Assembly (NCBI GenBank): GCA_048621635.1 | Contig: JBMCWH010000002.1 | Span: 2,227-66,226, forward strand | Source of the DNA: Patescibacteria group bacterium | GTDB lineage: Bacteria; Patescibacteriota; WWE3; JAUXAW01; JAYEID01 | Reading direction: 5' to 3' | DNA length: 64,000 nt | Shown here: positions 4,784 through 59,088 of the stretch, in pieces | Numbering within the stretch: position 1 is the first letter of the stretch | Layout: every line of letters starts with the position of its first letter | Translations under genes and position numbers: made by a program | Notes under the pieces: generated by a model | Told to the model about the DNA's origin: nothing | The model's database searches: none | Seen by the model: the letters and a program-made list of their open reading frames with translations, nothing else

Positions 4784-6325
4784 ATGTTACAGAATAAGTC
4801 AAAATCCAAATCAAGATCTCCCGAGAAAAGCCACATTAGACCGCCTGCTGTGGCGGGGTCTTTTTATCCTGCGGATGAAGATATTCTTTCCCAAGAAATA
4901 GAAAATTACCTAGCAGATGTAGAATTAGAAAAGGAGATAGGAAGAGTAAAAGTGTTGATTGTCCCTCATGCCGGACTGCGGTTTTCCGGAAAAGTTGCAG
5001 CGCATGGCTTCAAGGCTCTCCAACGCAAGGGGTTGGAGAGGGTTGTTCTTATCGGGTCTAGTCACCAGTATCCGGTTCGGGGAGCAGTAGTTGATAATCA
5101 TGCTTATTGGCAAACCCCTTTGGGTAAAGTTTCCGTTGATCAAGAGTTTGCTCGGATTTTAGCCGAGTCTGTATCCGGAATTACTTTGGATTCCGAACCA
5201 CATAAACAAGAACATTCTTTGGAAATTGAGCTCCCTTTTCTGCAAACTGTTTTGGGTGATTTCAAAATTGTGCCAATTTTAATTAACAATAGATCTTCCC
5301 AGTTAATTGACCAGATGGCTCAGTATCTTAGTAAAAATGGAGGAAAAGCTACGGTTGTAGTAATTAGTTCTGATCTATCGCATTACCCTTCTCATTCTGA
5401 TGCTAATAGGATAGACAAGGAAACGATAGATGCTATTACATCCGGTTCTGTTGCTCATTTTTTAGATGTAGTTGAAAAAGATATTGGGTCGGTAACAAAT
5501 CTAGCCACCCGAGCTTGTGGAGAAGTTCCAATTGTAGTTGGAATGGAAACAGCTAAAAATTTAGGTGCGAAAGACATTAGATTACTGAAATATGCTAATT
5601 CTGGTGATGTAACTGGTGATAAAAGAAGGGTGGTAGGCTATGCAGCTATTGCTTTTCCAATGGAGAAGCCAACTTCTGAAAAAGATAATGCTAGTCTTTT
5701 TGAAAGAGGTACTAGGGACGGAGGGAGTAGCCAAGGGAATGAGAAAGAGCAATCTTCAGAAACTACACCAGCCAGCTTAGGAGAAAACCAGCAGCAACTT
5801 CTTCTCAATCTTGCTCGGGAAACACTGGAATGCTTTGTGAGAGAAGGCGAAATTCCGGAGTTATCGGTGGATGATCCATCCTTACAAGAACAGCTAGGTG
5901 CGTTTGTAACACTTAAAAAGCCAGAAGATGAGCAAAATTTGCGTGGTTGTATGGGTGTGATTGAGGCAAAGAGGCCTTTGTGGAAAGTTGTTCAAGATCG
6001 TACGGTAGCTGCTGCTTCTAAGGACCCCCGTTTTTTACCAGTTACTCCGGATGAATTAGATAATATCGAAATTGAGATTTCTGTGCTTTCTAAGCCAAGG
6101 CTAGTTGATGATCCCAGTGAAATAGAATTAGGAAAACACGGAGTTATATTGGAGAAAAATGGGCGCGGTGGGGTCTTTCTTCCTCAGGTAGCAGAAGAAA
6201 CTGGATGGGATCTGGAGAATTTTCTTGGGCACCTGTGTACGCACAAAGCAGGGTTAAGACCAGATTGTTGGAAATCTTCCGAGACTTGCCTCTTCATATT
6301 CACAGCGCAAGTTTTTCCAGAATAG
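4784..6325 (+). CDS. Fusion of MEMO1-family protein (AmmeMemoRadiSam system protein B) and AMMECR1 domain (system protein A)
   Basis: The N-terminal half has RPPAVAGSFYPAD...VLIVPHAGLRFSG...SSDLSHY (MEMO). The C-terminal half has LGAFVTLKK...LRGCMG...DPRF.PV...IEISVLS...GVFLPQV..E.GW (AMMECR1). They are joined by a Ser/Glu/Gly-rich linker. Confidence 0.85.
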   Translation: MLQNKSKSKSRSPEKSHIRPPAVAGSFYPADEDILSQEIENYLADVELEKEIGRVKVLIVPHAGLRFSGKVAAHGFKALQRKGLERVVLIGSSHQYPVRGAVVDNHAYWQTPLGKVSVDQEFARILAESVSGITLDSEPHKQEHSLEIELPFLQTVLGDFKIVPILINNRSSQLIDQMAQYLSKNGGKATVVVISSDLSHYPSHSDANRIDKETIDAITSGSVAHFLDVVEKDIGSVTNLATRACGEVPIVVGMETAKNLGAKDIRLLKYANSGDVTGDKRRVVGYAAIAFPMEKPTSEKDNASLFERGTRDGGSSQGNEKEQSSETTPASLGENQQQLLLNLARETLECFVREGEIPELSVDDPSLQEQLGAFVTLKKPEDEQNLRGCMGVIEAKRPLWKVVQDRTVAAASKDPRFLPVTPDELDNIEIEISVLSKPRLVDDPSEIELGKHGVILEKNGRGGVFLPQVAEETGWDLENFLGHLCTHKAGLRPDCWKSSETCLFIFTAQVFPE

Positions 6326-6336
6326 TTGATTAGAAC

Positions 6337-6369
6337 GCCAATTAATAATCTCGGACTTTATTAATTGGC
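6337..6369. repeat. REP-like palindrome copy A (GCCAATTAATAA-TCTCGGACT-TTATTAATTGGC)
   Basis: Perfect 12-bp arms with a 9-nt loop. Positions 6329-6370 are identical to 39370-39411. Confidence 0.9.
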
Positions 6370-6441
6370 TTTTTAATGCACTGTATTTTATCTAAGCAAA
6401 GTATGTTGTTTCCAATAAGTTAAGGTGCTAAACTCAAACAA

Positions 6442-16378: not shown

Positions 16379-16394
16379 CGGTTTGCTTTCAGAA

Positions 16395-16985
16395 GCTTAT
16401 ACTTGGTGTTGGATAAATTTTAGAATGCAGTAAGCTCCGAGGACTATTCCTAGAAAGTTAAGAGTTAATTTTTCTGAGACACCAGGCCAGAAAAGGTTTA
16501 GTGTTGCCGAGGCACCAGCAATAGCAGCAACGAAAAAATAAATAAGTGTGTTTTGTCCTAGTTCTGTTACCATTGCCACATTGTTTACTTCAACTCCTAA
16601 GATATACGCTAAACTAAAGCAGAAAAGAACTCCAATTGTAGCTTGAATCAGCAAATTCTTGAAATTGTTCAGGAAAACTTTCTTTTCTTTCCAGACAAGT
16701 GCTGCTGGTAAGACTAGGATAGGGTTGAGCAAGGGGGCAATAACCATTGCTCCAATAACAATCGGTTCAGAATTTATAGAAAGTCCTAAGACACAAGTGG
16801 CTAGACCAGCAAAGGAAAGAAAAGCAAAATCGAAATCAAGGTTTGCTTTTTGTATTAGTCTTTGGTGAGCTTTTTCCAGCTCATTTTTCTCGATTAGGTT
16901 TGAGTTTTTCCAAATTTGCATGTGCTCTCCTTTTTCCATTGTAGTAAACTAGCGCGGTTCATAAAATAGTAAAAAATTTTTCTAG
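16395..16985. repeat. Segmental duplication, copy 1 (carries a 105-bp internal deletion)
   Basis: Near-identical over long stretches to 18691-19385, including about 45 nt upstream of the start codon. Confidence 0.85.
16397..16921 (-). CDS. DUF389-like membrane protein, internally deleted paralog (possibly non-functional)
   Basis: IVIGAMVIAPLLNPI motif. Lacks the 35 codons (VTGVAVSVALVPPIAIMGIALS...) present in the paralog. ATG 16921 is preceded by AAAGGAGAG. Confidence 0.55.
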   Translation of the reverse strand: MQIWKNSNLIEKNELEKAHQRLIQKANLDFDFAFLSFAGLATCVLGLSINSEPIVIGAMVIAPLLNPILVLPAALVWKEKKVFLNNFKNLLIQATIGVLFCFSLAYILGVEVNNVAMVTELGQNTLIYFFVAAIAGASATLNLFWPGVSEKLTLNFLGIVLGAYCILKFIQHQV

Positions 16986-17737: not shown

Positions 17738-18547
17738 TTAATATAAAGAAGGAAAGAAGATGAATTTAACTGCCGAGCCGGCTACAATAATGTACAACAA
17801 TATTCTAATGTACTTATAGCCAAACTTCTTTGCCCAGTTGATTCCTACGAAGGAACCAATGGCGCCTCCCAGAATGGTAGGAAAAGCATATTGCCAATTA
17901 ATTAGATCGGGTTGGTTAAAGTAAATGTAGGAAGCAACTACAGACATGAAAATATCAATTACTTTGGTTGTAGCTGCTGTGGCTAAAATGCTCGCTCCGC
18001 CAATGAAGTAAAACCCCAAAAGCATTAGTGTACCTACTGATCCACCGTAAAAACCAGCATAGAAACCGATGAATACGGTGAAAAACATCAGGATAATAGT
18101 CTGTTTCCGGTTTTGGGTTATTATTGGTCTTTTATTCGTAAGTTTATTAAACAACACCCTAACTGTACGGGAGAAAGTAACTTTCTCTTTTTTTACATGG
18201 GGAATGGTTAATAGGATAAGTAGCATTAGACCTCCTACAAGGTAAGAAAATAATTGCTGATCCATTTTGATGGCAGTGTGTGCACCGAAATAGCTCCCAA
18301 TCATTGCTAAGGGGGCAAAAGTACAGGCTTGTTTCCAGTTTACTAATTTTTCATTATTGAAGATCAGAGAGGTTATAATATCTAGCACCACGGTAACGAT
18401 TTGCATTGTTGCGATTGCTACTAGTGTAGGTAAGCCGATCAGTCCAAAAACTGAAACTAAAAACAAATTACCGCCTCCCGCAACCACATCACTGACGCTG
18501 GCTATAAAACCAAGAATTGATAGACCGGAAATTACTAAGATATTCAT
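17738..18547 (-). CDS. TauE/SafE (TSUP) family membrane transporter
   Basis: Polytopic membrane protein with two-fold internal symmetry and Gly-rich helices (AGGGNLF, GGSVGTLM) typical of the family. Confidence 0.7.
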   Translation of the reverse strand: MNILVISGLSILGFIASVSDVVAGGGNLFLVSVFGLIGLPTLVAIATMQIVTVVLDIITSLIFNNEKLVNWKQACTFAPLAMIGSYFGAHTAIKMDQQLFSYLVGGLMLLILLTIPHVKKEKVTFSRTVRVLFNKLTNKRPIITQNRKQTIILMFFTVFIGFYAGFYGGSVGTLMLLGFYFIGGASILATAATTKVIDIFMSVVASYIYFNQPDLINWQYAFPTILGGAIGSFVGINWAKKFGYKYIRILLYIIVAGSAVKFIFFPSLY

Positions 18548-18690
18548 TTCTTATATAATAGATGAACATGAAAAAAAGGGCAATAATTGAGTTGAAATAT
18601 TTCCTAACCAAGAAATGAACCGGAGGTTATGCCGGTAAATTTTACCGTACCATTTCGGGTTCTCTTGTGATTACAAGGGTTTTGGGAAAG

Positions 18691-19385
18691 CCTATACCTG
18701 GTGTTGGATAACTTTTAGAATGCTATAAGCTCCGATTAGTATCCCTAGAAAGTTGAGAGTTAAGTTTTCAGTTGCGCTTATCAGAATTTCTGTATTTTGG
18801 TTACTTAGTGCAATGCCCATGATTGCTATTGGCGGAACTAAAGCTACTGATACAGCAACTCCAGTTACTTTTTCTGGGACACCAGGCCAAAAAAGGCTTA
18901 GGGTGGCGGAGGTGCCGGCGATGGCGGCAACGAAGAAATAAATAAGTGCGTTTTGTCCTAGTTCTGAGATTAATTCCACATTCTGTACTTGAATTCCTAA
19001 TATATAAGCTAGGCTTGAGCAAAAAACGACGCCAATAATAACTTGGATAAGCAAATTCTTGAAGTTATTTAGGAACACTCTCTTTTCCTCCCAGATCAGT
19101 GCTGCTGGCAAAACTAAGATAGAGTAAAGTAAGGGGGAAATAATCATTGCCCCAATTACTATTGGGTCAGAGTTTAGGGACATTCCTAAGACACACGTGG
19201 CCAAACCAGCAAAGGAAAGAAAAGCAAAATCGAAATCAAGTTTTGCTTTTTGTATTAGTCTTTGGTGAGCCTTTTCCAGCTCATTTTTCTCGATTAGGCC
19301 TGAGTTTTTCCAAATTTGCATCTGCCCTCCTTTTTCCATTGTAGCAAACTAGCTCGGTTTGCAAAATAGTAAAAGGCTTTTCTAG
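18691..19385. repeat. Segmental duplication, copy 2 (full length)
   Basis: See 16395-16985. Confidence 0.85.
18692..19321 (-). CDS. DUF389-like membrane protein (full-length paralog)
   Basis: IVIGAMIISPLLYSI and AVSVALVPPIAIMG motifs. ATG 19321 is preceded by AAAGGAGGG. Confidence 0.65.
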   Translation of the reverse strand: MQIWKNSGLIEKNELEKAHQRLIQKAKLDFDFAFLSFAGLATCVLGMSLNSDPIVIGAMIISPLLYSILVLPAALIWEEKRVFLNNFKNLLIQVIIGVVFCSSLAYILGIQVQNVELISELGQNALIYFFVAAIAGTSATLSLFWPGVPEKVTGVAVSVALVPPIAIMGIALSNQNTEILISATENLTLNFLGILIGAYSILKVIQHQV

Positions 19386-26052: not shown

Positions 26053-26111
26053 GATTCGGACATTAATTAAGGATAACAAATAATTAATAATCTCGGACTT
26101 TATTAATTGGC
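26053..26111. repeat. REP-like pair: degenerate copy (26053-26072) plus copy B (26082-26111)
   Basis: Copy B is AATTAATAA-TCTCGGACT-TTATTAATTGGC, continuing into GTT. The upstream relic is GATTCGGACATTAATTAAGG. Confidence 0.75.
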
Positions 26112-26150
26112 GTTGGTATGGGTTTTTCTGAAAAATGTTAAAATAGGGCT

Positions 26151-35371: not shown

Positions 35372-35484
35372 TACGCGGGGGAGGAGTTGAACCTCCGTTT
35401 ATTCATCTTTCCGCTTCCCCTGGGCAGACGCTTGCCCTAAAGAGTAGAAGATGAATTGTCCTCGGCCTCTAGACTACCCGCGTA
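35372..35484 (-). tRNA. tRNA-like gene with about 39 extra nt in the anticodon loop; no encoded CCA; anticodon not assignable (UCU is one reading)
   Basis: Acceptor ACGCGGG/CCCGCGT, D-arm GTCT-AGAGGCCGA-GGAC, T-arm GGAGG-TTCAACT-CCTCC and a 4-5 nt variable loop. The anticodon stem ATTCA/TGAAT is extended by TCTT/AAGA and encloses hairpin GGGCA-AGCGTC-TGCCC. Confidence 0.5.
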
Positions 35485-37018: not shown

Positions 37019-37417
37019 ATGGTAGAAGAACTGTACTCAGAAAAAGTCCTCGATCATTTTTATAACCCCAAAAACATGGGAGAAATGGAAAATCCGGATG
37101 TAACTGTTCGAGTAGGCAACCCAGTCTGTGGAGATGTGATGGAAATGTACTTAGATATTGATACCCGTGAAGATGGAGAAGAATATATTGAGGATATAAA
37201 GTTTAAGACTTTAGGTTGCGGTGCTGCAATTGCAACGTCTTCAATGGCGACAGAACTGGTAAAGGGGAAGACTCTAGATGAAGCGGTTGAGTTGAGCAAT
37301 GAGGCTTTGTCCGAAGCGTTGGGTGGTTTGCCGCCGACAAAAGAGCATTGTTCAGTTCTGGCAGCGGATGCTGTTAAAAAAGCAATAAAGAAGTATCGTG
37401 AGGAGAAGAGATCTTGA
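37019..37417 (+). CDS. iscU: Fe-S cluster assembly scaffold IscU/NifU-like
   Basis: GNPVCGDVM, LGCGAAIATSS and EHCSVLAADAVKKAI, which are the three conserved Cys contexts. Confidence 0.9.
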   Translation: MVEELYSEKVLDHFYNPKNMGEMENPDVTVRVGNPVCGDVMEMYLDIDTREDGEEYIEDIKFKTLGCGAAIATSSMATELVKGKTLDEAVELSNEALSEALGGLPPTKEHCSVLAADAVKKAIKKYREEKRS

Positions 37418-37923
37418 GAATTTTGGGTGTTGACCCCGGTTTAGCAAAGGTAGGCTGGGGTGTAATTGAACAACCTACTGATAAATCACCTGAACAACGA
37501 AAAAAAGAAGAATGGTTGGTTGTTGAGTATGGCTGTATCAGCACTTCTGCGAAGAAATCAATTGCCGAGCGATTGAGTAAAATTAACCAAGCGATTACGA
37601 AACTTATAAGTCAGTTTGAACCCACAGAAGCTGCGATTGAAAACTTGTTCTTTGGAGTGAATGCGAAAACAGCAATGAAAGTAGGGGAAGGGAAAGGAGT
37701 AGTAATATTAGCCTGTGGACAGTGCAATATACCAGTTAAAGAATTTACCCCTTTAGAAATAAAGACAGCGCTTACTGGCTATGGAAGGGCTGATAAAAAA
37801 CAGGTTCAAGAGATGGTTAAAAGATTTCTAAATTTAGAGCAACTTCCTCAACCAGATCATGCTGCTGATGCACTTGCTTGTGCATATTGCGCAGGAATAA
37901 CAAGAGGACAACCAGAACTATGA
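37414..37923 (+). CDS. ruvC: Holliday junction resolvase RuvC
   Basis: MRILGVDPGLAKVGWGVIE, ENLFFG and HAADALACAYC. Confidence 0.9.
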   Translation: MRILGVDPGLAKVGWGVIEQPTDKSPEQRKKEEWLVVEYGCISTSAKKSIAERLSKINQAITKLISQFEPTEAAIENLFFGVNAKTAMKVGEGKGVVILACGQCNIPVKEFTPLEIKTALTGYGRADKKQVQEMVKRFLNLEQLPQPDHAADALACAYCAGITRGQPEL

Positions 37924-38486
37924 TTGGATATCTATCCGGTAAAGTAATTCATAAGGATACAGAAAAAATAATAGTGTCTAACAACGGTATTGGTTATGAG
38001 GTTAGAGTATCAGCAAGATACTCAAATCAGATTACCTCGGATGAAGATGTTTCCTTGTTTGTTCATACTTATGTTCGCGAAGATGCAATTGCTCTTTATG
38101 GATTTGAAAATATCCCTTCGCGTGATATCTTCCGTTCTTTAATTTCTGTATCCGGAGTGGGACCTAAAACAGCTCTTGGCGTTCTTTCCAAAACTAGCCC
38201 AGAAAAAATAAGGACAGCGGTTTCTAACGCGGAAACTGGTATCTTTACCGCTATCTCAGGTATCGGTAAAAAAACAGCAGGGAGAATTATTTTGGATCTG
38301 CAAACTGTATTGGGAGAAGAAAAAGAGTTAGATTTTTCTGGCCAGCCGGAAAAAGAAGATGCTTTGGAGGCGTTGGAAAATCTGGGTTACAGCAAAAAAG
38401 AAGCAGCAGCAGCATTAGAACCGGTAGATGCGGATCTATCCTCTGAAGAACAAATAAAGAAGGCGCTCCAGAATCTCGCCAGCTAG
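37920..38486 (+). CDS. ruvA: Holliday junction branch migration protein RuvA
   Basis: MIGYLSGKV...GIGYEV...LYGF...LISVSGVGPKTAL...ISGIGKKTA. ATGA overlap with the ruvC stop. Confidence 0.9.
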   Translation: MIGYLSGKVIHKDTEKIIVSNNGIGYEVRVSARYSNQITSDEDVSLFVHTYVREDAIALYGFENIPSRDIFRSLISVSGVGPKTALGVLSKTSPEKIRTAVSNAETGIFTAISGIGKKTAGRIILDLQTVLGEEKELDFSGQPEKEDALEALENLGYSKKEAAAALEPVDADLSSEEQIKKALQNLAS

Positions 38487-38521
38487 CTTTTTTTCATAAC
38501 CTTTCATAATCTCTTTCATAA

Positions 38522-38542
38522 TCTCGGACTTTATTAATCGCC
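38522..38542. repeat. REP-like copy D (degenerate left arm)
   Basis: TCTCGGACT loop plus right arm TTATTAATCGCC, ending 1 nt before the transposase stop codon (38544-38546). Preceded by the 12-nt tandem TTTCATAATCTC x2 (38502-38525). Confidence 0.7.
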
Positions 38543-38543
38543 T

Positions 38544-39311
38544 TCAATATGCCATTTCTTTGTATTGTTCGACCAACTCAGCTTTCTGATTCTTGTCTAG
38601 TTCCTCAAACTTACGAAACCAACCGAAATCATCATCAATTGCTACATCTTTCAAGCGCATAACCCCAAATTGATCGATCTCTGCTTCAGTAAATTTCTTA
38701 TATTCCTCTCTACTTCCAAATTCCCCGAGAACTAAATCAGTATTAAGAAAAGAATAGAAATCTCTTCTTGCTAGATACGTATTGAGACTAGACCAAGGGT
38801 ACTCAATTAACTGATTAACTGAATCTAAACCAAGTTTCTGTGGATTGATGTGCTGGTACCTAGTGACGTGAATTAATTGTTCATCACTTTCAACCTTAAC
38901 CGATTTGAACCGCCCTTGAAACAACCCACCTACCCTATCCTGCCGTTTATTGAAATACTTGGTATAAGAAGTACAAATACGGCGCATAAAATTCGTAATT
39001 CCGTCTTCGTTTAGTTGTTTAAAGACAAAGTGGAAATGATTAGGCATTAGACAGAAAGAAATTATATCTACAGCTGGTTTAATTATTTTCGTTTCTAAAT
39101 CCTCGATTATTGCCTCACGTGCTGCAGGTGATGTTGCTCTTTCTATCCTAGTACTAATTACGCTATAAGGAACTGAATATTTAAGAGAATGAGCTATAAC
39201 TTCTAGAAAATGAGAATAAAAACTATTGTTGGGGAAAATAATCCGCTTTTCTATACCTCTATTGTAAATGTGATAGGTACTGTCAGTTATTAACGGGTTG
39301 TCTCTTCTCAT
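38544..39311 (-). CDS. IS200-like HUH/Y1 transposase, REP-associated tyrosine transposase (RAYT)-like
   Basis: YHIYNRG, HUH motif MPNHFHFV, GGLFQGRFKS and the catalytic Tyr context VTRYQHINP. ATG 39311 lies 6 nt after TATATT. The longer ORF reaches 39371. Confidence 0.8.
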   Translation of the reverse strand: MRRDNPLITDSTYHIYNRGIEKRIIFPNNSFYSHFLEVIAHSLKYSVPYSVISTRIERATSPAAREAIIEDLETKIIKPAVDIISFCLMPNHFHFVFKQLNEDGITNFMRRICTSYTKYFNKRQDRVGGLFQGRFKSVKVESDEQLIHVTRYQHINPQKLGLDSVNQLIEYPWSSLNTYLARRDFYSFLNTDLVLGEFGSREEYKKFTEAEIDQFGVMRLKDVAIDDDFGWFRKFEELDKNQKAELVEQYKEMAY

Positions 39312-39377
39312 AAGTGGAATATAGCTGTGTTGATTGTTAATGTCAATAGGTAGTAAACAATAAAAGCGCATTAGAAC

Positions 39378-39410
39378 GCCAATTAATAATCTCGGACTTT
39401 ATTAATTGGC
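39378..39410. repeat. REP-like palindrome copy C (perfect)
   Basis: GCCAATTAATAA-TCTCGGACT-TTATTAATTGGC. Confidence 0.9.
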
Positions 39411-39501
39411 TGTAACATAGGGAATCACATCGAGCCACATGGGGCATAGCAGATATTGAGGGGGCTGAAATTTTTACGCTTTTTTGTTAGAATTATTGGT
39501 G

Positions 39502-40536
39502 ATGAACGAAAAGCCCGCCCAAGAAAAACAAAATAAAAAGGAAGAAGAAATTCTGGATAAAACATTAAGACCACAAAGGTTTGCAGATTTTCCAGGTCAA
39601 CCGGAGTTAAAGAAAAAGCTTAAGATATTCTTGCAGGCGGCACAGAAGCGTGGTGAGGCAATGGAACATATTCTTTTTTACGGTCCCCCCGGATTAGGAA
39701 AAACCACCCTGGCACAAATCTTGGCCAATGAGATAGAGGTAAACGTAAGAATAACCTCAGGTCCTGCTATTGAAAAAGCTGGAGAACTGGCAGCCGTAAT
39801 TACAAACCTATCTCCTAACGATATTCTTTTTATTGATGAAATTCACCGCTTAAACAAAGCTATTGAAGAAGTCTTGTACCCTGCTATGGAAGATTTTGCT
39901 CTAGATATCGTAGTAGGGAAGGGGCCCTCAGCACGGAGTGTTCGTCTGGAACTTCCTCAGTTTACTTTAATAGGGGCTACAACCAGAATAGGTTTAATGT
40001 CTTCGCCGCTTAGGGATCGTTTCGGGGCATTACATCGCCTTCGCTTTTACAAAGAAAGAGAACTTGCTAAAATTGTCAAAAGGTCTAGTAATATCTTAGA
40101 TGTTAATATTGAAAAAGAGGCTGCGTTGGAGATAGCTCAGAGGTCCCGGGGTACGCCGCGTATTGCGAACAGGCTACTTAAACGAGTTCGCGACTTTGCT
40201 CAAGTGAATAAAAAAGATATAATTGATTTAGAATTAGTAAGAGCAGCTTTGGACCTGCAAGGTATTGATAAAAGTGGTCTTACGCAGGAAGATTGCGCTT
40301 TTTTGGAAATAATCTGTTCTAAATTTTCTGGTGGGCCGGTAGGGATAAAGACTCTTTCTGCTGCTCTTTCCGAAGACGAAGGAACTATAGAAGATGTTGT
40401 TGAGCCTTATCTAATTCAAAGCGGTCTTATTAAGAAAACAGCACGTGGACGTGTTGCTACTGAGAAGGCATTCAGGCATCTGGACATAGCCAATCCGAAA
40501 GAAGATCCAGACCAGCAGGGAAAGTTAAATGTCTGA
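39502..40536 (+). CDS. ruvB: Holliday junction DNA helicase RuvB
   Basis: [31 protein letters not shown] and [11 protein letters not shown]. Confidence 0.95.
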
Positions 40537-51237: not shown

Positions 51238-52380
51238 ATGATTAATTCATCCCAAAGTCAACAAAAGACCAAAGCCTTAACCGGAGCGCAAGCTGCTGTG
51301 GAAGCAATGCGCCAGATAGACCCTGGCGTAGTAGCTGCTTATCCAATTACTCCTCAGACCCCAATTATGGAAGATTTTTCCAAACTGGTCGCTAACGGAA
51401 AAGTAAATACAGAATTGATACGTGTTGAATCAGAACATTCTGCTATGTCGTCTGTCATTGGTGCCCAAGCAGCGGGAGTTCGCGCCATGACAGCTAGTTC
51501 TTCTGCGGGGCTAGCTTTGATGTTTGAAATGCTGGGTGTAGCTTCCGGCTTGCGTCTTCCTATTGTGATGCACGTAGCTAACAGAGCTTTATCTAGCCCA
51601 ATAAACATCCACTGTGATCATTCTGATACCATGGGGGTAAGGGAACAAGGGTGGATTCAGCTCTATGCAGAAAATCCGCAAGAAGTATACGATCTAACAT
51701 TTCTTGCCTTAAATTTGGCTGAAGATCTCAAAGTCCAACTTCCAGCTCTTATTGCCCAAGATGGTTTTATTATTAGCCATGCAGTAGAGAAGGTTAATAT
51801 ACTAAATAATAATGTTGCAGAAAAATTAATTGGTAAGTACCATGCTGAAACAAACCTCCTAAATCACAAGAAATCAGAAACTGTAGGCTCACTAGCCTTG
51901 CCCAACTTTCAAATGGAGATAAAGCAGTTGCAAATGGAAGCAACAGAAAATGTTTTAGATATTTATCCTCAAATGGAAGCAAAAGTAGAAAAAGCAACGG
52001 GGAAAAGTTACCCAATGGTGGAAAAATACTCATTAAAGAACGCGAATATTGCATTGGTAGCATTGGGATCTTCTACCGGAACAATTAGGCACACCCTTAA
52101 AGAAAACCCGGAAACTGCCCAATCAGTGGGTTTATTAAAAATTAGACTTTTTCGTCCTTTTCCTTATCAAAAAGTAGGAGAGCTTTTAGAACAAGTGGAA
52201 AAGGTAATTGTTTTAGACCGTACACCCACCTACGGTAGCGGGGCACCCCTATATTTGGATGTTAAAAATTCTTTGTACACTTTTGAAAATAAACCTGAAG
52301 TCGAAAGCGTAATTTACGGAATCGGGGGCAGAGATTTTAGTAGCGAAGATGTGTTAAATATAATAAACGAGATAAAATGA
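51238..52380 (+). CDS. porA: Pyruvate:ferredoxin oxidoreductase alpha subunit
   Basis: YPITPQT, ESEHSAMS and operon context. Confidence 0.85.
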   Translation: MINSSQSQQKTKALTGAQAAVEAMRQIDPGVVAAYPITPQTPIMEDFSKLVANGKVNTELIRVESEHSAMSSVIGAQAAGVRAMTASSSAGLALMFEMLGVASGLRLPIVMHVANRALSSPINIHCDHSDTMGVREQGWIQLYAENPQEVYDLTFLALNLAEDLKVQLPALIAQDGFIISHAVEKVNILNNNVAEKLIGKYHAETNLLNHKKSETVGSLALPNFQMEIKQLQMEATENVLDIYPQMEAKVEKATGKSYPMVEKYSLKNANIALVALGSSTGTIRHTLKENPETAQSVGLLKIRLFRPFPYQKVGELLEQVEKVIVLDRTPTYGSGAPLYLDVKNSLYTFENKPEVESVIYGIGGRDFSSEDVLNIINEIK

Positions 52381-53309
52381 AAATAAAGGAACTAGCTCAA
52401 AAAGAAAGTAAATTAGCTTCGGGGCACTTAACTTGTACCGGTTGCGGAATCCCGCTAATTGTTCGCACCGTGCTGAAAAGTATAGATACACCTGTAATTA
52501 CTGTAGTAGCTACTGGTTGTTTAGAAGTAACCACAACTATTTTCCCGCAAACCGCATGGAAAGTTCCGTTTATCCACTCTGCTTTTGAAAACGCAGCTGC
52601 AACAGCCGCCGGTATTGATGCAGCAATTAATAATCTAGAAAAAACTGATCAATTAGAAGGTGAAAAACCAACAATTGTTGCTTTTGCCGGAGACGGGGGC
52701 ACCTACGATATTGGCTTGCAAAGTCTTTCCGGAGCTTTAGAAAGAGGGCATAATTTTCTCTACATCTGTTATGATAACGAAGCTTATATGAACACCGGTG
52801 TTCAACGTTCGTCAGCCACACCTTTGGGTGCTTGGACTACCACTTCGGAAACTGGTACTAAACAATTAGGTAAGAATATACACAAAAAAAACATTACCCG
52901 TATTGTTGCTGCTCACCAAATCCCCTATGTCGCTCAAGCAACTATTTCTCATTTAGAAGATTTATCGGCTAAAGTTGAAAAAGCACTTAACTACAAAGGT
53001 CCTAAGTTCATAAATGTTTTACAACCCTGTGTACCTGGCTGGAAGATCCAGCCTTCACAAACAATTAATGTTGCTCGCCTAGCTGTGGAAACACGTTTTT
53101 GGCCGCTTTATGAGATTGAGAAAGGTAAGCTAAACCTTAACGTAGAAGTAGATGACCCGAAACCAATTGAAGAATTTTTACAAGTGCAAGGAAGGTTTAA
53201 GCATCTGTTTAAACCCGAAAAACAAGAAAAAGTTATAAGCAAGCTTCAGGAAAACGTTGATAAAGAATGGGAAAGACTGAAGAAAAAGGAAAAGATCGAC
53301 AGTGATTAA
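52377..53309 (+). CDS. porB: Pyruvate:ferredoxin oxidoreductase beta subunit (TPP-binding)
   Basis: CTGCG and GDGG.YDIG...NEAYMNTG, the TPP motif. Confidence 0.85.
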   Translation: MKIKELAQKESKLASGHLTCTGCGIPLIVRTVLKSIDTPVITVVATGCLEVTTTIFPQTAWKVPFIHSAFENAAATAAGIDAAINNLEKTDQLEGEKPTIVAFAGDGGTYDIGLQSLSGALERGHNFLYICYDNEAYMNTGVQRSSATPLGAWTTTSETGTKQLGKNIHKKNITRIVAAHQIPYVAQATISHLEDLSAKVEKALNYKGPKFINVLQPCVPGWKIQPSQTINVARLAVETRFWPLYEIEKGKLNLNVEVDDPKPIEEFLQVQGRFKHLFKPEKQEKVISKLQENVDKEWERLKKKEKIDSD

Positions 53310-53333
53310 GGATTTTTAAAACACAGTTTCTTC

Positions 53334-54998
53334 TTAATCTGATAACAACCGTCTGAGCTGATTGTCAGAAAACTGCTCAACATTTCTGAAAATAATGACT
53401 TTGGGATGATCATAAACTTGAAAAGTTTCCTCAACTGTGGAGGTTTTGATTGTTACACCAAAAATCTGTGGGTAAGAAGCGAATTCAGCCACTTTTTCAT
53501 ATCCTAACTCACCAGAAAACAGTAAATAATAATATCTAGAAGTAAGTGGGTATTTTTCTGGTAATTGCGTTAATGTACCGTAAAGTCTTCGACTACTTAA
53601 AACAAGATAATCGGCTGTGGACAATTTTTCAGCAAGGTAAGATAATTTATCTACGCTATCTTGGGCATACATCTCTAAATCTTCCACCCTATAAACTCTC
53701 GCATTCCGGCCTTTTAAATTTACAGGTAAGCTATCATCCCAATGTTCAGTAAGTATTTTTGCCTGGGGAAATATGTTCTCGTACATCCACCTAGAAGCTA
53801 TTATTCTTGTATTTTCTTGACTGTAAATTGAGACAAACGCGGAAGCATAAAGAAAAGTCGTTGCGACGATAATACATATTAGCGTTCTCCCCCAAAATTT
53901 AAATCTTTTTACCACCCACCAAGACACCCAAGCAGCAAAGATGCAAAAGAAGGGCAGCAGCGGAACTGTGTACCGGACAAATTTGGCAAACCAAGATCCA
54001 ATAATTAAGAAATAAGCAACTGGCCAAGATATTAAAAGTAGACGCTTTCTCTTAATAGTTTTGCAGGAAAATATGCTAACAGCTGATTGGAGACTCAACA
54101 CAAAAAATCCCAGTAAAGAAGAAAAAGCTAAAAATGGACCCATGGTCCAGAAAAGATTCTTAATTTGGTATATATATGGATACGTGTTGTAAAACTGGTA
54201 TACATAACAAACTTTTCTCTGACCAGAAACAACGCTTCCTTCGTACCCTATTGATTTTCTAAAAGAACTAAAATCAAGAAAAGTGTAAGGCGAAGAAAGA
54301 AAGAAGAAAAACACAAGCACGCCAAAAAAAGAGAACAAATACTTAGCTTGTTTCCATAAATTTTCTTCACTTGCAAAAAGATGGGCTACGACTGGAAAAA
54401 TCAAAAAACTCAAAGCAGAAAACTTGGTACCTGCTGCTAAACCTAGTACTGCTCCGGCAGCTAAATAATTAGCTAAAGTGGGCTTCTGCAGAATTTTCAA
54501 ACTGAACAAAGCTATTATTAGTCCCCAAAAGCATAACATGCTTTCAGTTACTCCAAAGTGACCAGTCTGAATTAGTAAGGGGACAAAAGCTGTAAAGCAG
54601 GCAGCAAGTACACCAACTTTATTATTGAAAACCCATTTAGCGACCATAAAGACGAGGAGAATTGCTAGTGAAGAGAAGGTGGCGGAAAAGGTTCTCCCAA
54701 TTAGATTAATTTTTCCCCAAGAGGATACCCAAGACGAGTTAGCTGTTATTGTTTTAACAACTTCTCCAGCAATACGGTATAAATAAATAGGAAAGCCCCC
54801 ATAGGCAAAAAAATGAGGATTAAGTTGTCCAAAGAAGTTAATTTCGGAAACAGCTTTGGAAATATTTCGCTCGTCAGGATGAAAAAAATTTCCTTGATCC
54901 CAATTCAGGTTATAGAAACGGAAAAATAGACCAATGACAAAAACAAACAAAAGAAGAACTTTGCGAATAACTTTTCCCTGCTCCGGATTTAACTTCAT
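53334..54998 (-). CDS. GT-C fold membrane glycosyltransferase (ArnT/PMT-like)
   Basis: Polytopic protein with FHPDERN in its first loop. ATG 54998 forms an ATGA overlap with the upstream stop. The track start is 55064. Confidence 0.6.
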   Translation of the reverse strand: MKLNPEQGKVIRKVLLLFVFVIGLFFRFYNLNWDQGNFFHPDERNISKAVSEINFFGQLNPHFFAYGGFPIYLYRIAGEVVKTITANSSWVSSWGKINLIGRTFSATFSSLAILLVFMVAKWVFNNKVGVLAACFTAFVPLLIQTGHFGVTESMLCFWGLIIALFSLKILQKPTLANYLAAGAVLGLAAGTKFSALSFLIFPVVAHLFASEENLWKQAKYLFSFFGVLVFFFFLSSPYTFLDFSSFRKSIGYEGSVVSGQRKVCYVYQFYNTYPYIYQIKNLFWTMGPFLAFSSLLGFFVLSLQSAVSIFSCKTIKRKRLLLISWPVAYFLIIGSWFAKFVRYTVPLLPFFCIFAAWVSWWVVKRFKFWGRTLICIIVATTFLYASAFVSIYSQENTRIIASRWMYENIFPQAKILTEHWDDSLPVNLKGRNARVYRVEDLEMYAQDSVDKLSYLAEKLSTADYLVLSSRRLYGTLTQLPEKYPLTSRYYYLLFSGELGYEKVAEFASYPQIFGVTIKTSTVEETFQVYDHPKVIIFRNVEQFSDNQLRRLLSD

Positions 54999-56338
54999 TT
55001 CTGCAAAATTTGTTCTGCAAGAGTTGATCCCCATTGAACGGCGTAGTTCATCCCCCGATCCCAAGGATAGACGGTCTGCATATTAACTAAATACACATTT
55101 GGCAATGGTGTTTTTACTTGTGGGATTTTATTCAGAAATTTGGTAGTTACGATGGGTTGAGCTCGCAAAGAAGTTGTAAGGTGATAATCTTCCGTTGATT
55201 GAGGAGACTTAAAGTTAGGATTAATTTTTCTTAAATACGGGCTGAAATGCGCAAGTACTTGTTTTTTCTCCATTCTAAAGTATTTGTGTTCCGGAGGATA
55301 GTACCCACCAACATAAAGTAGATTTTTTTGGCCATACTTTTCCGAACTAACAAAATTTGTGTGTTCCACTAAAGCGACAAAAGGAAAGTCACTTTCATTA
55401 ATATTCAACCAGTAGGTCCCGTCAGTAAGAAAGGATTTATTCAATTCAAGAATTAAACACAAAGCACCCATCATCTTGGGTTTTTTCAATTTATTTTTGT
55501 ATTTTCTTGGCAAATTATGCGCAATCTCAGCCAATTGATCCGCTGAACCAGTAAAAACAACGGCATCAAAACGATCACGCAAATATTCCCAATCTTTTAT
55601 TTTCTTACCTAATTTAACAGTGCCACCTTGTTTCTCTATCTTGCTAGCAAGTGCATCAATTAACACCTGAAACCCGCCTTTTAAATAACCTAAGGAGGAA
55701 CTTCTCTTCTTAATCCGTGCCCAAATCCAGCTAGCAGAGACTTGTTTGTAATATTGTCCAAACTTTCCCCTAAGCAAAGGCTTCCATAAAAGTTCATAGA
55801 CTTTTCTACCGTACAAAGCGCGCAAAAAATTCTCAGCAGTCTTGTTTGTAAGCTTAGCAATTCTTTCTCTGTCTGTTTGCAAAGGCAAAGTTTTTTTATT
55901 GAATTGTCTCAAAAGATAATAGTCATCTTTTTTTTGATTAAATAACGGCGATTTTAAGTAAGCTGTTGCTAAGCCCACTCTAATTCGTTCTAAAATCGAA
56001 AGTGGTGTAAACTGTAAAACAGAAGAAGGAGAATCAAAGCGAAAAATTTTTTTCTTACTTTCATCTGTTTCCAAGTACAAAGCTGTTTTGGGCTGGGTAA
56101 AAAAAAGTTTGTCACCAAGACCTAACTCAGTAATAAGATCAATGATCGCTTTATCGGAGGTGAAGATATGGTGAAAAAATACTTCTAATCCCCACTCCCA
56201 ATTTTGTTTCTTTAATCCTCGAGCTAAACCTCCCAGATAATTTTCTTTTTCAAAGATAACAACCTTACACCCTTCTTTACTAAGTCGGTAAGCAGTTGTA
56301 AGTCCAGTCATTCCTGCTCCAACAATAGCAATTTTCAT
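54995..56338 (-). CDS. FAD/NAD(P)-binding oxidoreductase (amine oxidase/phytoene desaturase-like fold)
   Basis: N-terminal MKIAIVGAGMTGLTTAY...VVIFEK...GG dinucleotide-binding motif. Confidence 0.7.
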   Translation of the reverse strand: MKIAIVGAGMTGLTTAYRLSKEGCKVVIFEKENYLGGLARGLKKQNWEWGLEVFFHHIFTSDKAIIDLITELGLGDKLFFTQPKTALYLETDESKKKIFRFDSPSSVLQFTPLSILERIRVGLATAYLKSPLFNQKKDDYYLLRQFNKKTLPLQTDRERIAKLTNKTAENFLRALYGRKVYELLWKPLLRGKFGQYYKQVSASWIWARIKKRSSSLGYLKGGFQVLIDALASKIEKQGGTVKLGKKIKDWEYLRDRFDAVVFTGSADQLAEIAHNLPRKYKNKLKKPKMMGALCLILELNKSFLTDGTYWLNINESDFPFVALVEHTNFVSSEKYGQKNLLYVGGYYPPEHKYFRMEKKQVLAHFSPYLRKINPNFKSPQSTEDYHLTTSLRAQPIVTTKFLNKIPQVKTPLPNVYLVNMQTVYPWDRGMNYAVQWGSTLAEQILQK

Positions 56339-58473: not shown

Positions 58474-59088
58474 TTAAAAACGGCGAATTACTCCCACTAC
58501 CTTACCTTGTATCTGCACATTCGTTGCGTAGATGGGATCCATGGAAGAGTTTGCGGGTTCCAAACGAATACGGTCTTCTTCTTTAAAAAATTGCTTCAAA
58601 GTTGCAAAACCATTTTCCAGTAAAGCAACCACAATGTCTCCGTTTTCTGCCGTATCCTGCTGCTCAACTACCACGTAATCGCGGTCTAAAATACCTTCTT
58701 CAATCATTGAATCTCCTTTTACTTGTAGAACAAAAGATCGCTTCTTACCTGTGACCAGGCTAGGGGATATGGTTATAGTTTCTGTAGGATCTTCAATTGC
58801 CTCAATAGGTTCACCAGCAGCAATCATTCCTACAAGAGGAACTTCAATTCCTTCTAATGATTCTTCTATCCCACCTCCAATAACCTCAATTCCCCGCACT
58901 GCTCCTTTATACCGTTTTATTACGCTTTTATCTTCTAAAGTTTCAAGGTGTTCATGCACAGTGGCTAGTGAGGATAGATCCATAGCATCCGCAATTTCCT
59001 GCAAAGTAGGTGAGGTTCCGTGTTTTTGGATATATTGGGAAATGAAGTCCAAGATTTCCTTTTGTCTTTTGTAAAGGGTAACGGGCAT
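58474..59088 (-). CDS. lexA: LexA repressor
   Basis: N-terminal wHTH LTKRQKEILDFI-like segment (LYKRQKEILDFISQYIQKHGTSPTLQEIA), a hinge GMIAAGEPI matching the usual LexA cleavage-site context, and S24 peptidase KGDSM with a downstream Lys. Confidence 0.9.
   Translation of the reverse strand: MPVTLYKRQKEILDFISQYIQKHGTSPTLQEIADAMDLSSLATVHEHLETLEDKSVIKRYKGAVRGIEVIGGGIEESLEGIEVPLVGMIAAGEPIEAIEDPTETITISPSLVTGKKRSFVLQVKGDSMIEEGILDRDYVVVEQQDTAENGDIVVALLENGFATLKQFFKEEDRIRLEPANSSMDPIYATNVQIQGKVVGVIRRF

Follow-up and report, generated by a model that had tools for sequence, protein, structure and literature searches.

Can a repetitive extragenic palindromic (REP) system, with its partner enzyme, reside in the genome of a Patescibacterium? 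The question is raised by a locus in a 64-kb stretch of Patescibacteria DNA (hereafter the window, to which all window copy counts refer), where a gene for a tyrosine transposase of the Y1 HUH type lies between ruvA and ruvB, with an AT-rich palindrome upstream and a degenerate copy of it downstream. REP-associated tyrosine transposases (RAYTs) and their REPs are the textbook case of a domesticated transposase co-evolving with a population of non-autonomous hairpin repeats and, to our knowledge, nearly all work on them has dealt with Proteobacteria and Cyanobacteria. Patescibacteria genomes, by comparison, are small, streamlined and repeat-poor. We consider it probable that the locus is a resident, single-copy, vertically inherited gene for a RAYT-type (class 2 TnpAY1) HUH/Tyr nuclease-ligase of single-stranded DNA (ssDNA), together with its cognate stem-loop repeat, and that the two form a REPtron-like module of a large Patescibacteria lineage.

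The window locus and ~130 relatives bring the same RAYT/REP logic into Patescibacteria. With hairpins that are few, short and genome-specific, the lineage is a tractable one for studying RAYT function, how the identity of copies is kept up and how hairpins within an open reading frame (ORF) are tolerated. There is also a practical side, as hairpin repeats fragment short-read assemblies of Candidate Phyla Radiation (CPR) genomes.

Identity of the protein

The initial annotation described the minus-strand ORF as a RAYT-like Y1 transposase with an HUH motif and a catalytic Tyr context, and proposed a profile search of its 255-aa product. Both motifs were reproduced in the translation (CLMPNHFHFVFKQ, which contains the HUH, and VTRYQHINPQK), and the search returned Y1_Tnp as the sole Pfam domain at E ≤ 1, with 32.8 bits against a cutoff of 23. 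The ORF (38544-39371) is free of internal stops and encodes 275 aa when counted from its first ATG. The real product is taken to be the 255-aa protein, since the N-termini of homologues begin at the column of M21 in the alignment and the end of a promoter-like site (11 of 12 matches) lies 6 nt upstream of the ATG at 39311. This placement implies that the mRNA is probably leaderless and that the 20 upstream codons (39312-39371) are non-coding. Judged from its sequence, the enzyme gene is intact and has a promoter-like site of its own.

The NCBIfam model REP_Tyr_transpos (NF047646) is matched by all 34 aligned family members, with a best E-value of 1.9e-17. None of the 34 matches an IS200-type NCBIfam model, and the sole other match is to the unrelated TIGR00042, in one member. 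The HUH, the Tyr, the Y-x-x-x-NP motif and WSS are invariant in alignments of 34 and 39 homologues, the invariant residues including H14, R18, G19, H92, H94, Y152, H154, N156, Y171, W173 and S174. Y-x-x-x-NP defines class 2 of TnpAY1, which holds the RAYTs, whereas IS200 belongs to class 1 with Y-x-x-x-Q (PMC6006769, Table 1); the motif therefore places the protein in class 2, not class 1. Compared by eye with the same table, the motifs NHFH, FQ (LFQGRF), Y[QI]H[IL]NP and WSS and the length of ~240 aa are closest to subclass 2.1. Relatives of 224 aa carry YIHLNP where the window protein has YQHINP.

A search of the PDB with the AlphaFold2 (AF2) model, which has a mean predicted local distance difference test (pLDDT) score of 92.4, gave as top fold match 4er8_A, the E. 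coli TnpA_REP with a REP hairpin (E = 2.6e-7), whereas the TnpA proteins of IS608, ISDra2 and IS200 reached 4e-4 or weaker, with IS608 and ISDra2 at ~5e-4. This separation comes from the fold search alone, as sequence profiles against the PDB scored RAYT and IS200 TnpA alike (E ~0.01 for both). No Bac_DnaA_C-like or other helix-turn-helix (HTH) C-terminal domain was detected by Pfam at E ≤ 1. By profile, modelled fold and motifs, the protein thus appears nearer to REP-associated tyrosine transposases than to IS200 TnpA. A six-frame hidden Markov model (HMM) search found one copy of the gene in the window and no fragments or pseudogenes of it. The earlier proposal of a RAYT-type Y1 enzyme with cognate hairpins, as opposed to an IS200/IS605 element, therefore stands on Y-x-x-x-NP, the 34 of 34 REP_Tyr_transpos matches, the 4er8_A fold and the single copy.

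Hairpin copies in the window

The palindrome reported upstream of the gene (copy c4) proved perfect: GCCAATTAATAA-TCTCGGACT-TTATTAATTGGC at 39378-39410 has a 12-bp stem and the 9-nt loop TCTCGGACT on the + strand, and precedes the -35 box of the gene by 31 nt. Its folding energy as ssDNA is -9.9 kcal/mol (z = -4.2), a value that none of 200 shuffles reached. The downstream copy (c3), described as sharing the 9-nt loop and ending 1 nt before the stop codon, does both (stop codon at 38544-38546), and the two loops have the same orientation as claimed, both on the + strand. Likewise recovered was the 12-nt tandem duplication at the 3' junction, for which Tandem Repeats Finder (TRF) gives 3.0 copies of TTTCATAATCTC. 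Each unit equals the junction of left arm and loop, including the first four loop bases, and the array stands in place of the left arm of c3. The region 38487-38548 does not fold (0 kcal/mol on either strand). With this left arm replaced and no fold, the gene is bracketed by one hairpin and one half-site. The view that it is bracketed by hairpins is thus right upstream but not downstream.

Two solo copies, c1 and c2, both lie in intergenic DNA. The 42-nt unit of c1 is 100% identical to c4, 33 kb away; it begins 4 nt past the stop codon that ends a Memo-AMMECR1 gene, has a VWA-domain gene downstream of it, and folds with -11.2 kcal/mol (z = -5.0). Copy c2 has a minus-strand DUF3850/ASCH gene on one side and, on the other, uvrC, whose start is 41 nt away. 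Its right arm is complete with a GTT foot, its left arm is truncated, and it folds with -4.2 kcal/mol (z = -2.1). Three of the four copies therefore fold, and the best two (c1 and c4) beat all 200 shuffles. The 21-nt core has four matches in the window at ≤3 mismatches against 0.00 expected, with no match in any of 100 dinucleotide-preserving shuffles. Exact scans of genome and metagenome contig collections for this core gave no match, and the over-representation on which the initial annotation made its reading depend was assessed within the 64 kb, where two solo intergenic copies stand against 0 expected. The copies keep different outer parts of a longer palindrome, AAC-GCC...GGC-GTT and, farther out, ATTAG/CTAAT. 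Accordingly, the foot reads GAAC-GCC on the + strand in c1 and c4, and its complement GGC-GTT is found on c2.

At gathering thresholds Rfam reports only tRNAs in the window, with no match at the hairpins, and the 2.2 kb beyond the left window edge hold no further copy. Half-site matches at 17893-17910 and 59045-59056 were judged to be chance, as both lie within coding sequence and have no second arm. A decayed second gene in the 543-nt uvrA-uvrC spacer around c2 was also considered and rejected: the six-frame HMM search found none, and the spacer carries the DUF3850/ASCH gene.

All four loops are on the + strand, which by GC skew is G-rich from position 1 to ~52 kb, so that the parental + strand would be the lagging-strand template. 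The shared polarity is consistent with action on this template, although four copies are too few to count as evidence. The skew changes sign from + to - at ~52000-56000, with a cumulative maximum near 52 kb and mixed gene orientation; the switch may mark a replication terminus or a rearrangement boundary.

Other assemblies of the same species add two observations. Independent short-read contigs from other samples (L145:1-30, L147 and L149:4545-4575) end inside c4 and c1; a repeat longer than the k-mer of the assembler would produce such ends. In the metagenome-assembled genome (MAG) GCA_048622755.1 (L150:2925-2960, corresponding to window 26085-26110), c2 carries an 11-nt tandem duplication, CTTTATTAATT x2, which comprises the last two loop bases and most of the right arm and is absent from the window and from SRR21542050. 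This 11-nt duplication and the 12-nt x3 array at c3 both have a boundary inside the loop. This suggests recurrent arm duplication at the hairpins, or assembly error. Such loop-linked duplications could arise by hairpin-induced slippage, by abortive nicking and rejoining, or by faulty assembly of the MAG.

Hairpins across the family

The family set comprises 80 loci of species-representative genomes and 59 metagenomic loci; almost all bear Patescibacteria titles, while some third-party annotation (TPA) MAGs are titled otherwise. For 129 distinct genes with full flanks, the 300 nt upstream were compared with those downstream, and a repeat with a score ≥ 15 was counted as shared. Such a repeat flanks 102 of the 129 genes (79%), whereas among 172 similarly sized control ORFs from the same loci only one has it (0.6%). 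It is mostly a short hairpin, 30-100 nt before the start and again 0-40 nt past the stop, and the flanking copies are direct in some relatives and inverted in others.

The hairpins are genome-specific, with 107 distinct sequences in the family, and copies are alike within a genome and diverged between genomes. The loop AGTCCGRGA (gene-sense strand) is common to the window and its closest full-length homologue (L004), although their AT-rich stems differ. Among 11 aligned hairpins of the close subfamily, double compensatory changes occur at 8 of 10 stem pairs. Paired cells amount to 93.6% against 32-48% when partner columns are slid, a percentage inflated by the choice of the best palindromes, although the compensatory pattern at homologous positions is not affected by this choice.

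Solo copies are scarce, with 12 in 1.17 Mb around 94 genes. In 20 of these 94 genes (~21%) a hairpin lies within the ORF itself, in frame and near-identical to the flanking one. These in-ORF copies belong to relatives and not to the window gene. They concentrate in two hot spots, at ~nt 150-185, before the HUH strand (~aa 52-70), and at ~nt 450-490, just past Y-x-x-x-NP (~aa 150-165). At hot spot 1 the hairpin occupies an orthologous position in genes that are 50-70% identical, and the in-ORF sequence is that of the flanking copies of the same genome (L064, L069, L071, L036; L118, L114, L117, L115). An in-ORF hairpin is present in L077 and absent in L073 and L083. This combination of concerted evolution and insertion polymorphism argues that the copies are actively exchanged. 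Hairpins within the gene have been reported in the literature only for TnpAY1 subclass 2.4.

The 255-aa subfamily to which the window protein belongs has an extra two-helix insert at codons ~48-75 (window 39090-39170, minus strand), exactly at hot spot 1 of the relatives. The DNA here contains an imperfect CACCTGCAGCACGTG palindrome that by eye resembles the CACC...GGTG class of hairpins, and may have remained from a former in-gene hairpin.

Position of the gene in relatives

A comparison of the ruvA-ruvB junction in related genomes, as the initial annotation advised, located the gene there in L004 too, again in opposite orientation to the ruv genes; the RAYT-like protein of L004 is 57% identical to that of the window. 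RuvB, RuvA and RuvC of the two loci are 79%, 61% and 59% identical, so that, judged against RuvA and RuvC, the gene has diverged to much the same extent as the genes beside it. A gap of 26 nt separates ruvA from ruvB in L090 (50% identity), where the RAYT-like gene is found 2.2 kb away, and in L001 (53% identity) the gene lies inside an ABC-transporter operon. These two positions show that the unit has moved, over long time scales only.

Pairs of family members from a single genome or locus share 38-67% identity, and every member has a hairpin of its own; the pairs in L005, L007, L015, L036, L046, L099/L100 and L135 are 38-62% identical, 2-10 kb apart and likewise have their own hairpins. Intragenomic copies of IS200, in contrast, are ~99% identical (PMC6006769, Table 1). 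The divergence of the paralogues thus matches class 2 TnpAY1, not IS200. On these comparisons the gene is, to all appearances, resident and vertically inherited.

L004 holds a second accessory gene in the ruvA-ruvB gap beside the RAYT-like one, a nucleotidyltransferase (NTP_transf_2/Polbeta, 300 aa, at L004:4604-5506), and the spacer seems to collect accessory genes. A functional link to the ruv genes was considered and rejected, as a ruv gene lies in the fetched locus for only 4 of ~140 relatives (L004, L059, L079 and L090), which is about what chance gives for 20-kb windows in genomes of ~1000 genes.

Proposed mechanism and competing explanations

If it acts like E. coli TnpA_REP and IS608 TnpA, the protein would bind the folded hairpin on DNA that is transiently single-stranded at the replication fork, probably on the lagging-strand template (here the + strand). 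Tyr152 and an HUH-bound metal would then nick beside or in the hairpin, and the strand would be rejoined. Occasional copying or replacement of hairpins at other sites could follow, and copies would be kept homogenised. The gene itself would no longer move, as its 3' site is destroyed and its position is common to a diverged relative. The upstream hairpin, adjacent to the promoter, probably lets the protein regulate its own expression.

The locus could instead be an autonomous IS200-like insertion sequence (IS), with the hairpins as left and right subterminal ends of a ~0.9-kb unit that transposes as ssDNA and landed between ruvA and ruvB. The flanking copies are direct, like the left end (LE) and right end (RE) of IS608; the ruv operon is interrupted here and contiguous in the more distant L090; and over evolutionary time the unit has moved, as the homologue in the ABC-transporter operon shows. 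That tnpB is missing does not speak against this explanation, since IS200 proper consists of tnpA only. We nevertheless judge this explanation unlikely, given one copy and no fragments in 64 kb, the orthologous position in L004 with a divergence like that of flanking housekeeping genes, and paralogues far below the ~99% identity of IS200 copies (PMC6006769, Table 1). The protein has Y-x-x-x-NP in place of Y-x-x-x-Q and 255 aa in place of ~150, and no family member matches an IS200-type model. Solo and in-ORF copies show the hairpin moving or being replaced without the gene, and the 3' end in the window cannot fold.

Another explanation takes the hairpins as immobile cis-regulatory elements of a Y1 protein that now has a host function in ssDNA processing, the upstream one serving as a promoter operator and the 3' one as a terminator or stabiliser; solo copies would be further binding or terminator sites. 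This fits the upstream hairpin, always 30-100 nt ahead of the start and often overlapping or abutting a -35 box, the downstream copy just past the stop, the terminator-like place of c1 behind its neighbouring gene and the rarity of dispersed copies in the family, and Bertels et al. (PMC5581495) have argued that RAYTs behave like housekeeping genes. However, it does not account for 42 nt of complete identity at two unrelated loci 33 kb apart, for copies homogenised per genome while orthologues diverge, or for the insertion polymorphism between L077 and L073 or L083, and an operator or terminator role hardly explains hairpins that lie in coding sequence. The hairpins are not followed by a T-run, and a terminator scan calls none of them. 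We regard purely cis-regulatory hairpins as quite improbable. It is hardly credible that chance or low complexity in an AT-rich genome produced the repeats and that they have no link to the gene: the stem is almost only A and T and the window has ~40% GC, but the shuffles gave not even one match, the control ORFs carry flank repeats in 0.6% of cases against 79% in the family, and L004 keeps the loop. This reading is refuted by the shuffles and the control set.

Several points weigh against the RAYT-type module with cognate hairpins. The cleavage and transposition mechanism proposed for it is drawn from analogy. The window protein scores 52.7-52.9 bits with REP_Tyr_transpos, below the equivalog cutoff of 80, a comparison made for the score of the window protein only. 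The E. coli REPtron has a GT[AG]G foot, whereas GT[AG]G (GTAG or GTGG) is absent at the hairpin foot of the window copies. WQPRFWEH, which we take to be the GTAG-contact region of the E. coli enzyme, has its counterpart in FQGRFKSV, which by eye shows no equivalent residues. REPs of bacterial interspersed mosaic elements (BIMEs) form inverted doublets, whereas the four window copies are singletons of one polarity and no inverted doublets (REPINs) were found among them. Copy number is low, with two solo copies in the 64 kb and 12 in the 1.17 Mb around 94 relatives, and this lineage shows only weak dispersal, the activity by which RAYTs are defined. The direct orientation of the flanking copies is also that of IS200/IS605 ends, the same-strand polarity of four copies, two of them gene-linked, is statistically weak, and the pairing percentage of the aligned hairpins is inflated.

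A more specific form of the RAYT-type reading, which we entertain only tentatively, is that this Patescibacteria lineage keeps a tiny and mostly local set of hairpins (at the promoter, past the stop and, in about one fifth of genes, in frame within the ORF at the two hot spots) identical by ongoing enzyme-mediated replacement and builds no large REP population. The unit would then be a self-homogenising and self-regulating DNA-editing one, not a disperser of repeats, that occasionally seeds solo copies such as those of the window. If this is true, the loop-linked arm duplications at c3 and at c2 of the other assembly would be footprints of nicking in the loop.

Locus and other features of the window

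The positions of the gene, its neighbours and the hairpin copies are given in Table 1. As the initial annotation stated, the gene splits the ruvC-ruvA-ruvB cluster between ruvA and ruvB, and tnpB is absent from the neighbourhood, where Pfam identifies RuvC, RuvA and RuvB.

Table 1. Features of the RAYT-like locus and hairpin copies in the window, with relatives that carry in-ORF hairpins
Feature	Position	Strand	Details
RAYT-like Y1 HUH gene	38544-39311	minus	255 aa from M21 at 39311; Pfam, NCBIfam, AF2, fold search
HUH of RAYT-like protein	H92-F-H94		
Catalytic Tyr of RAYT-like protein	Tyr152		within RYQHINP
YPWSS of RAYT-like protein	residues 171-175		
DDDFGWF and long helix of RAYT-like protein	C-terminal		specific to subfamily
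Promoter-like TTGACA-17 nt-TATATT	39318-39346	minus	see text
ruvC	37414-37923		context; Pfam
ruvA	37920-38486	plus	convergent with RAYT-like gene; Pfam
ruvB	39502-40536	plus	divergent from RAYT-like gene; Pfam
Copy c4	39370-39411	plus	intact hairpin 39378-39410, 8-nt 5' extension ATTAGAAC and one 3' base
Copy c3	38516-38542	plus	degenerate half-copy; identical loop 38522-38530, right arm TTATTAATCGCC 38531-38542
12-nt tandem repeat TTTCATAATCTC	38492-38525	plus	period 12, 3.0 copies; TRF
Solo copy c1	6329-6370	plus	perfect hairpin 6337-6369; longer imperfect stem 6324-6382
Solo copy c2	26078-26113	plus	9-bp stem 26082-26090/26100-26108, same loop; copy proper 26078-26110
In-ORF hairpin carriers			L007, L026, L036 (two genes), L042, L046 (two genes), L047, L049, L059, L063, L064, L069, L071, L077, L081, L106, L118 and others

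Two further features were noted away from the locus. Rfam calls a tRNA at 35372-35483 (minus strand; 112 nt, 47.2 bits) that ARAGORN does not report, and which may contain an intron or be otherwise unusual. Regions 16393-16762 and 18688-19162 share two direct repeats, one of 82 nt (87% identity) and one of 300 nt (80% identity), at a distance of ~2.3-2.4 kb. These repeats overlap minus-strand ORFs at 16397-16939 and 18692-19339, which are probably a diverged tandem gene pair.

Comparison with known systems

In describing the locus as a REPtron, the initial annotation held such systems to be known mainly from Proteobacteria. This is too narrow, as REPtron-like arrangements have been described outside Proteobacteria too, from Cyanobacteria, Bacteroidetes and further phyla (PMC6006769). 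A full-text search of an incomplete literature collection returned no paper linking RAYT/REP elements with Patescibacteria, and the sole match was a preprint citing the KEGG annotation K07491 in an archaeal neighbour locus.

The TnpA proteins of IS200/IS605 elements (IS608, ISDra2, IS200; subclass 1.1) share with the window protein the HUH/Y1 fold, recognition of a subterminal hairpin on one strand, the direct orientation of the flanking copies and a presumed action on the lagging-strand template. They differ in having Y-x-x-x-Q in a core-only protein of ~150 aa, as against Y-x-x-x-NP in 255 aa. The elements are near-identical and multicopy, keep both hairpin ends intact and often carry tnpB, whereas the window has one copy, an unfolded 3' site and no tnpB. 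Moreover, the paralogues of the window family are diverged and its hairpins also occur without the gene.

The REPtron of E. coli, with TnpA_REP (YafM, PDB 4ER8; subclass 2.2, Bertels group 2), shares the core of HUH and single Tyr, Y-x-x-x-NP and a WSS-type tail. Its gene is likewise single-copy and flanked by a cognate palindrome that is also found alone in intergenic DNA, and its hairpin is genome-specific and co-evolves with the gene. E. coli REPs number hundreds per genome, compared with a handful per 64 kb here, and the window protein has in addition the helical insert (residues 48-75) and the C-terminal DDDFGWF helix. Subclass 2.4 of Cyanobacteria and Bacteroidetes, which has REPs within its own gene, resembles the family through the in-frame cognate hairpin of ~21% of relatives; the in-ORF positions and the lineage differ, and the hairpins of the family lack the GTAG double foot.

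The closest motif signature of all subclasses is that of subclass 2.1 (NH[YF]H, FQ, Y[IV]HLNP, an SS tail and ~238 aa; PMC6006769, Table 1), a placement made by motifs alone. The TIRYTs of TIRtrons (Di Nocera 2013, PMC3733652) mostly correspond to this subclass (Quentin 2018, PMC6006769) and to RAYT group 1 (Bertels 2017, PMC5581495). TIRtrons likewise have flanking repeats of low abundance, and some of their terminal inverted repeats (TIRs) are self-complementary. However, these TIRs carry GGGGWSAS and the proteins an HTH tail, whereas the window locus has AT-rich hairpins without GGGGWSAS and no HTH by Pfam; the TIRYTs are also from Proteobacteria and the window family from Patescibacteria. 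Quentin et al. report no REP-like structures beside subclass 2.1 genes (PMC6006769), in contrast to the flanking hairpin at 79% of the Patescibacteria genes. The REPtron-like layout is thus found here in a lineage with the motif signature of a subclass reported to lack REPs. The REPtron architecture originally assigned to the locus holds for the cognate flanking palindrome, the solo copies and the single gene, but not for the GT[AG]G foot, the inverted pairs, the 3' hairpin, the cutoff score or a high copy number, and the module is one that works like a REPtron without being a canonical one.

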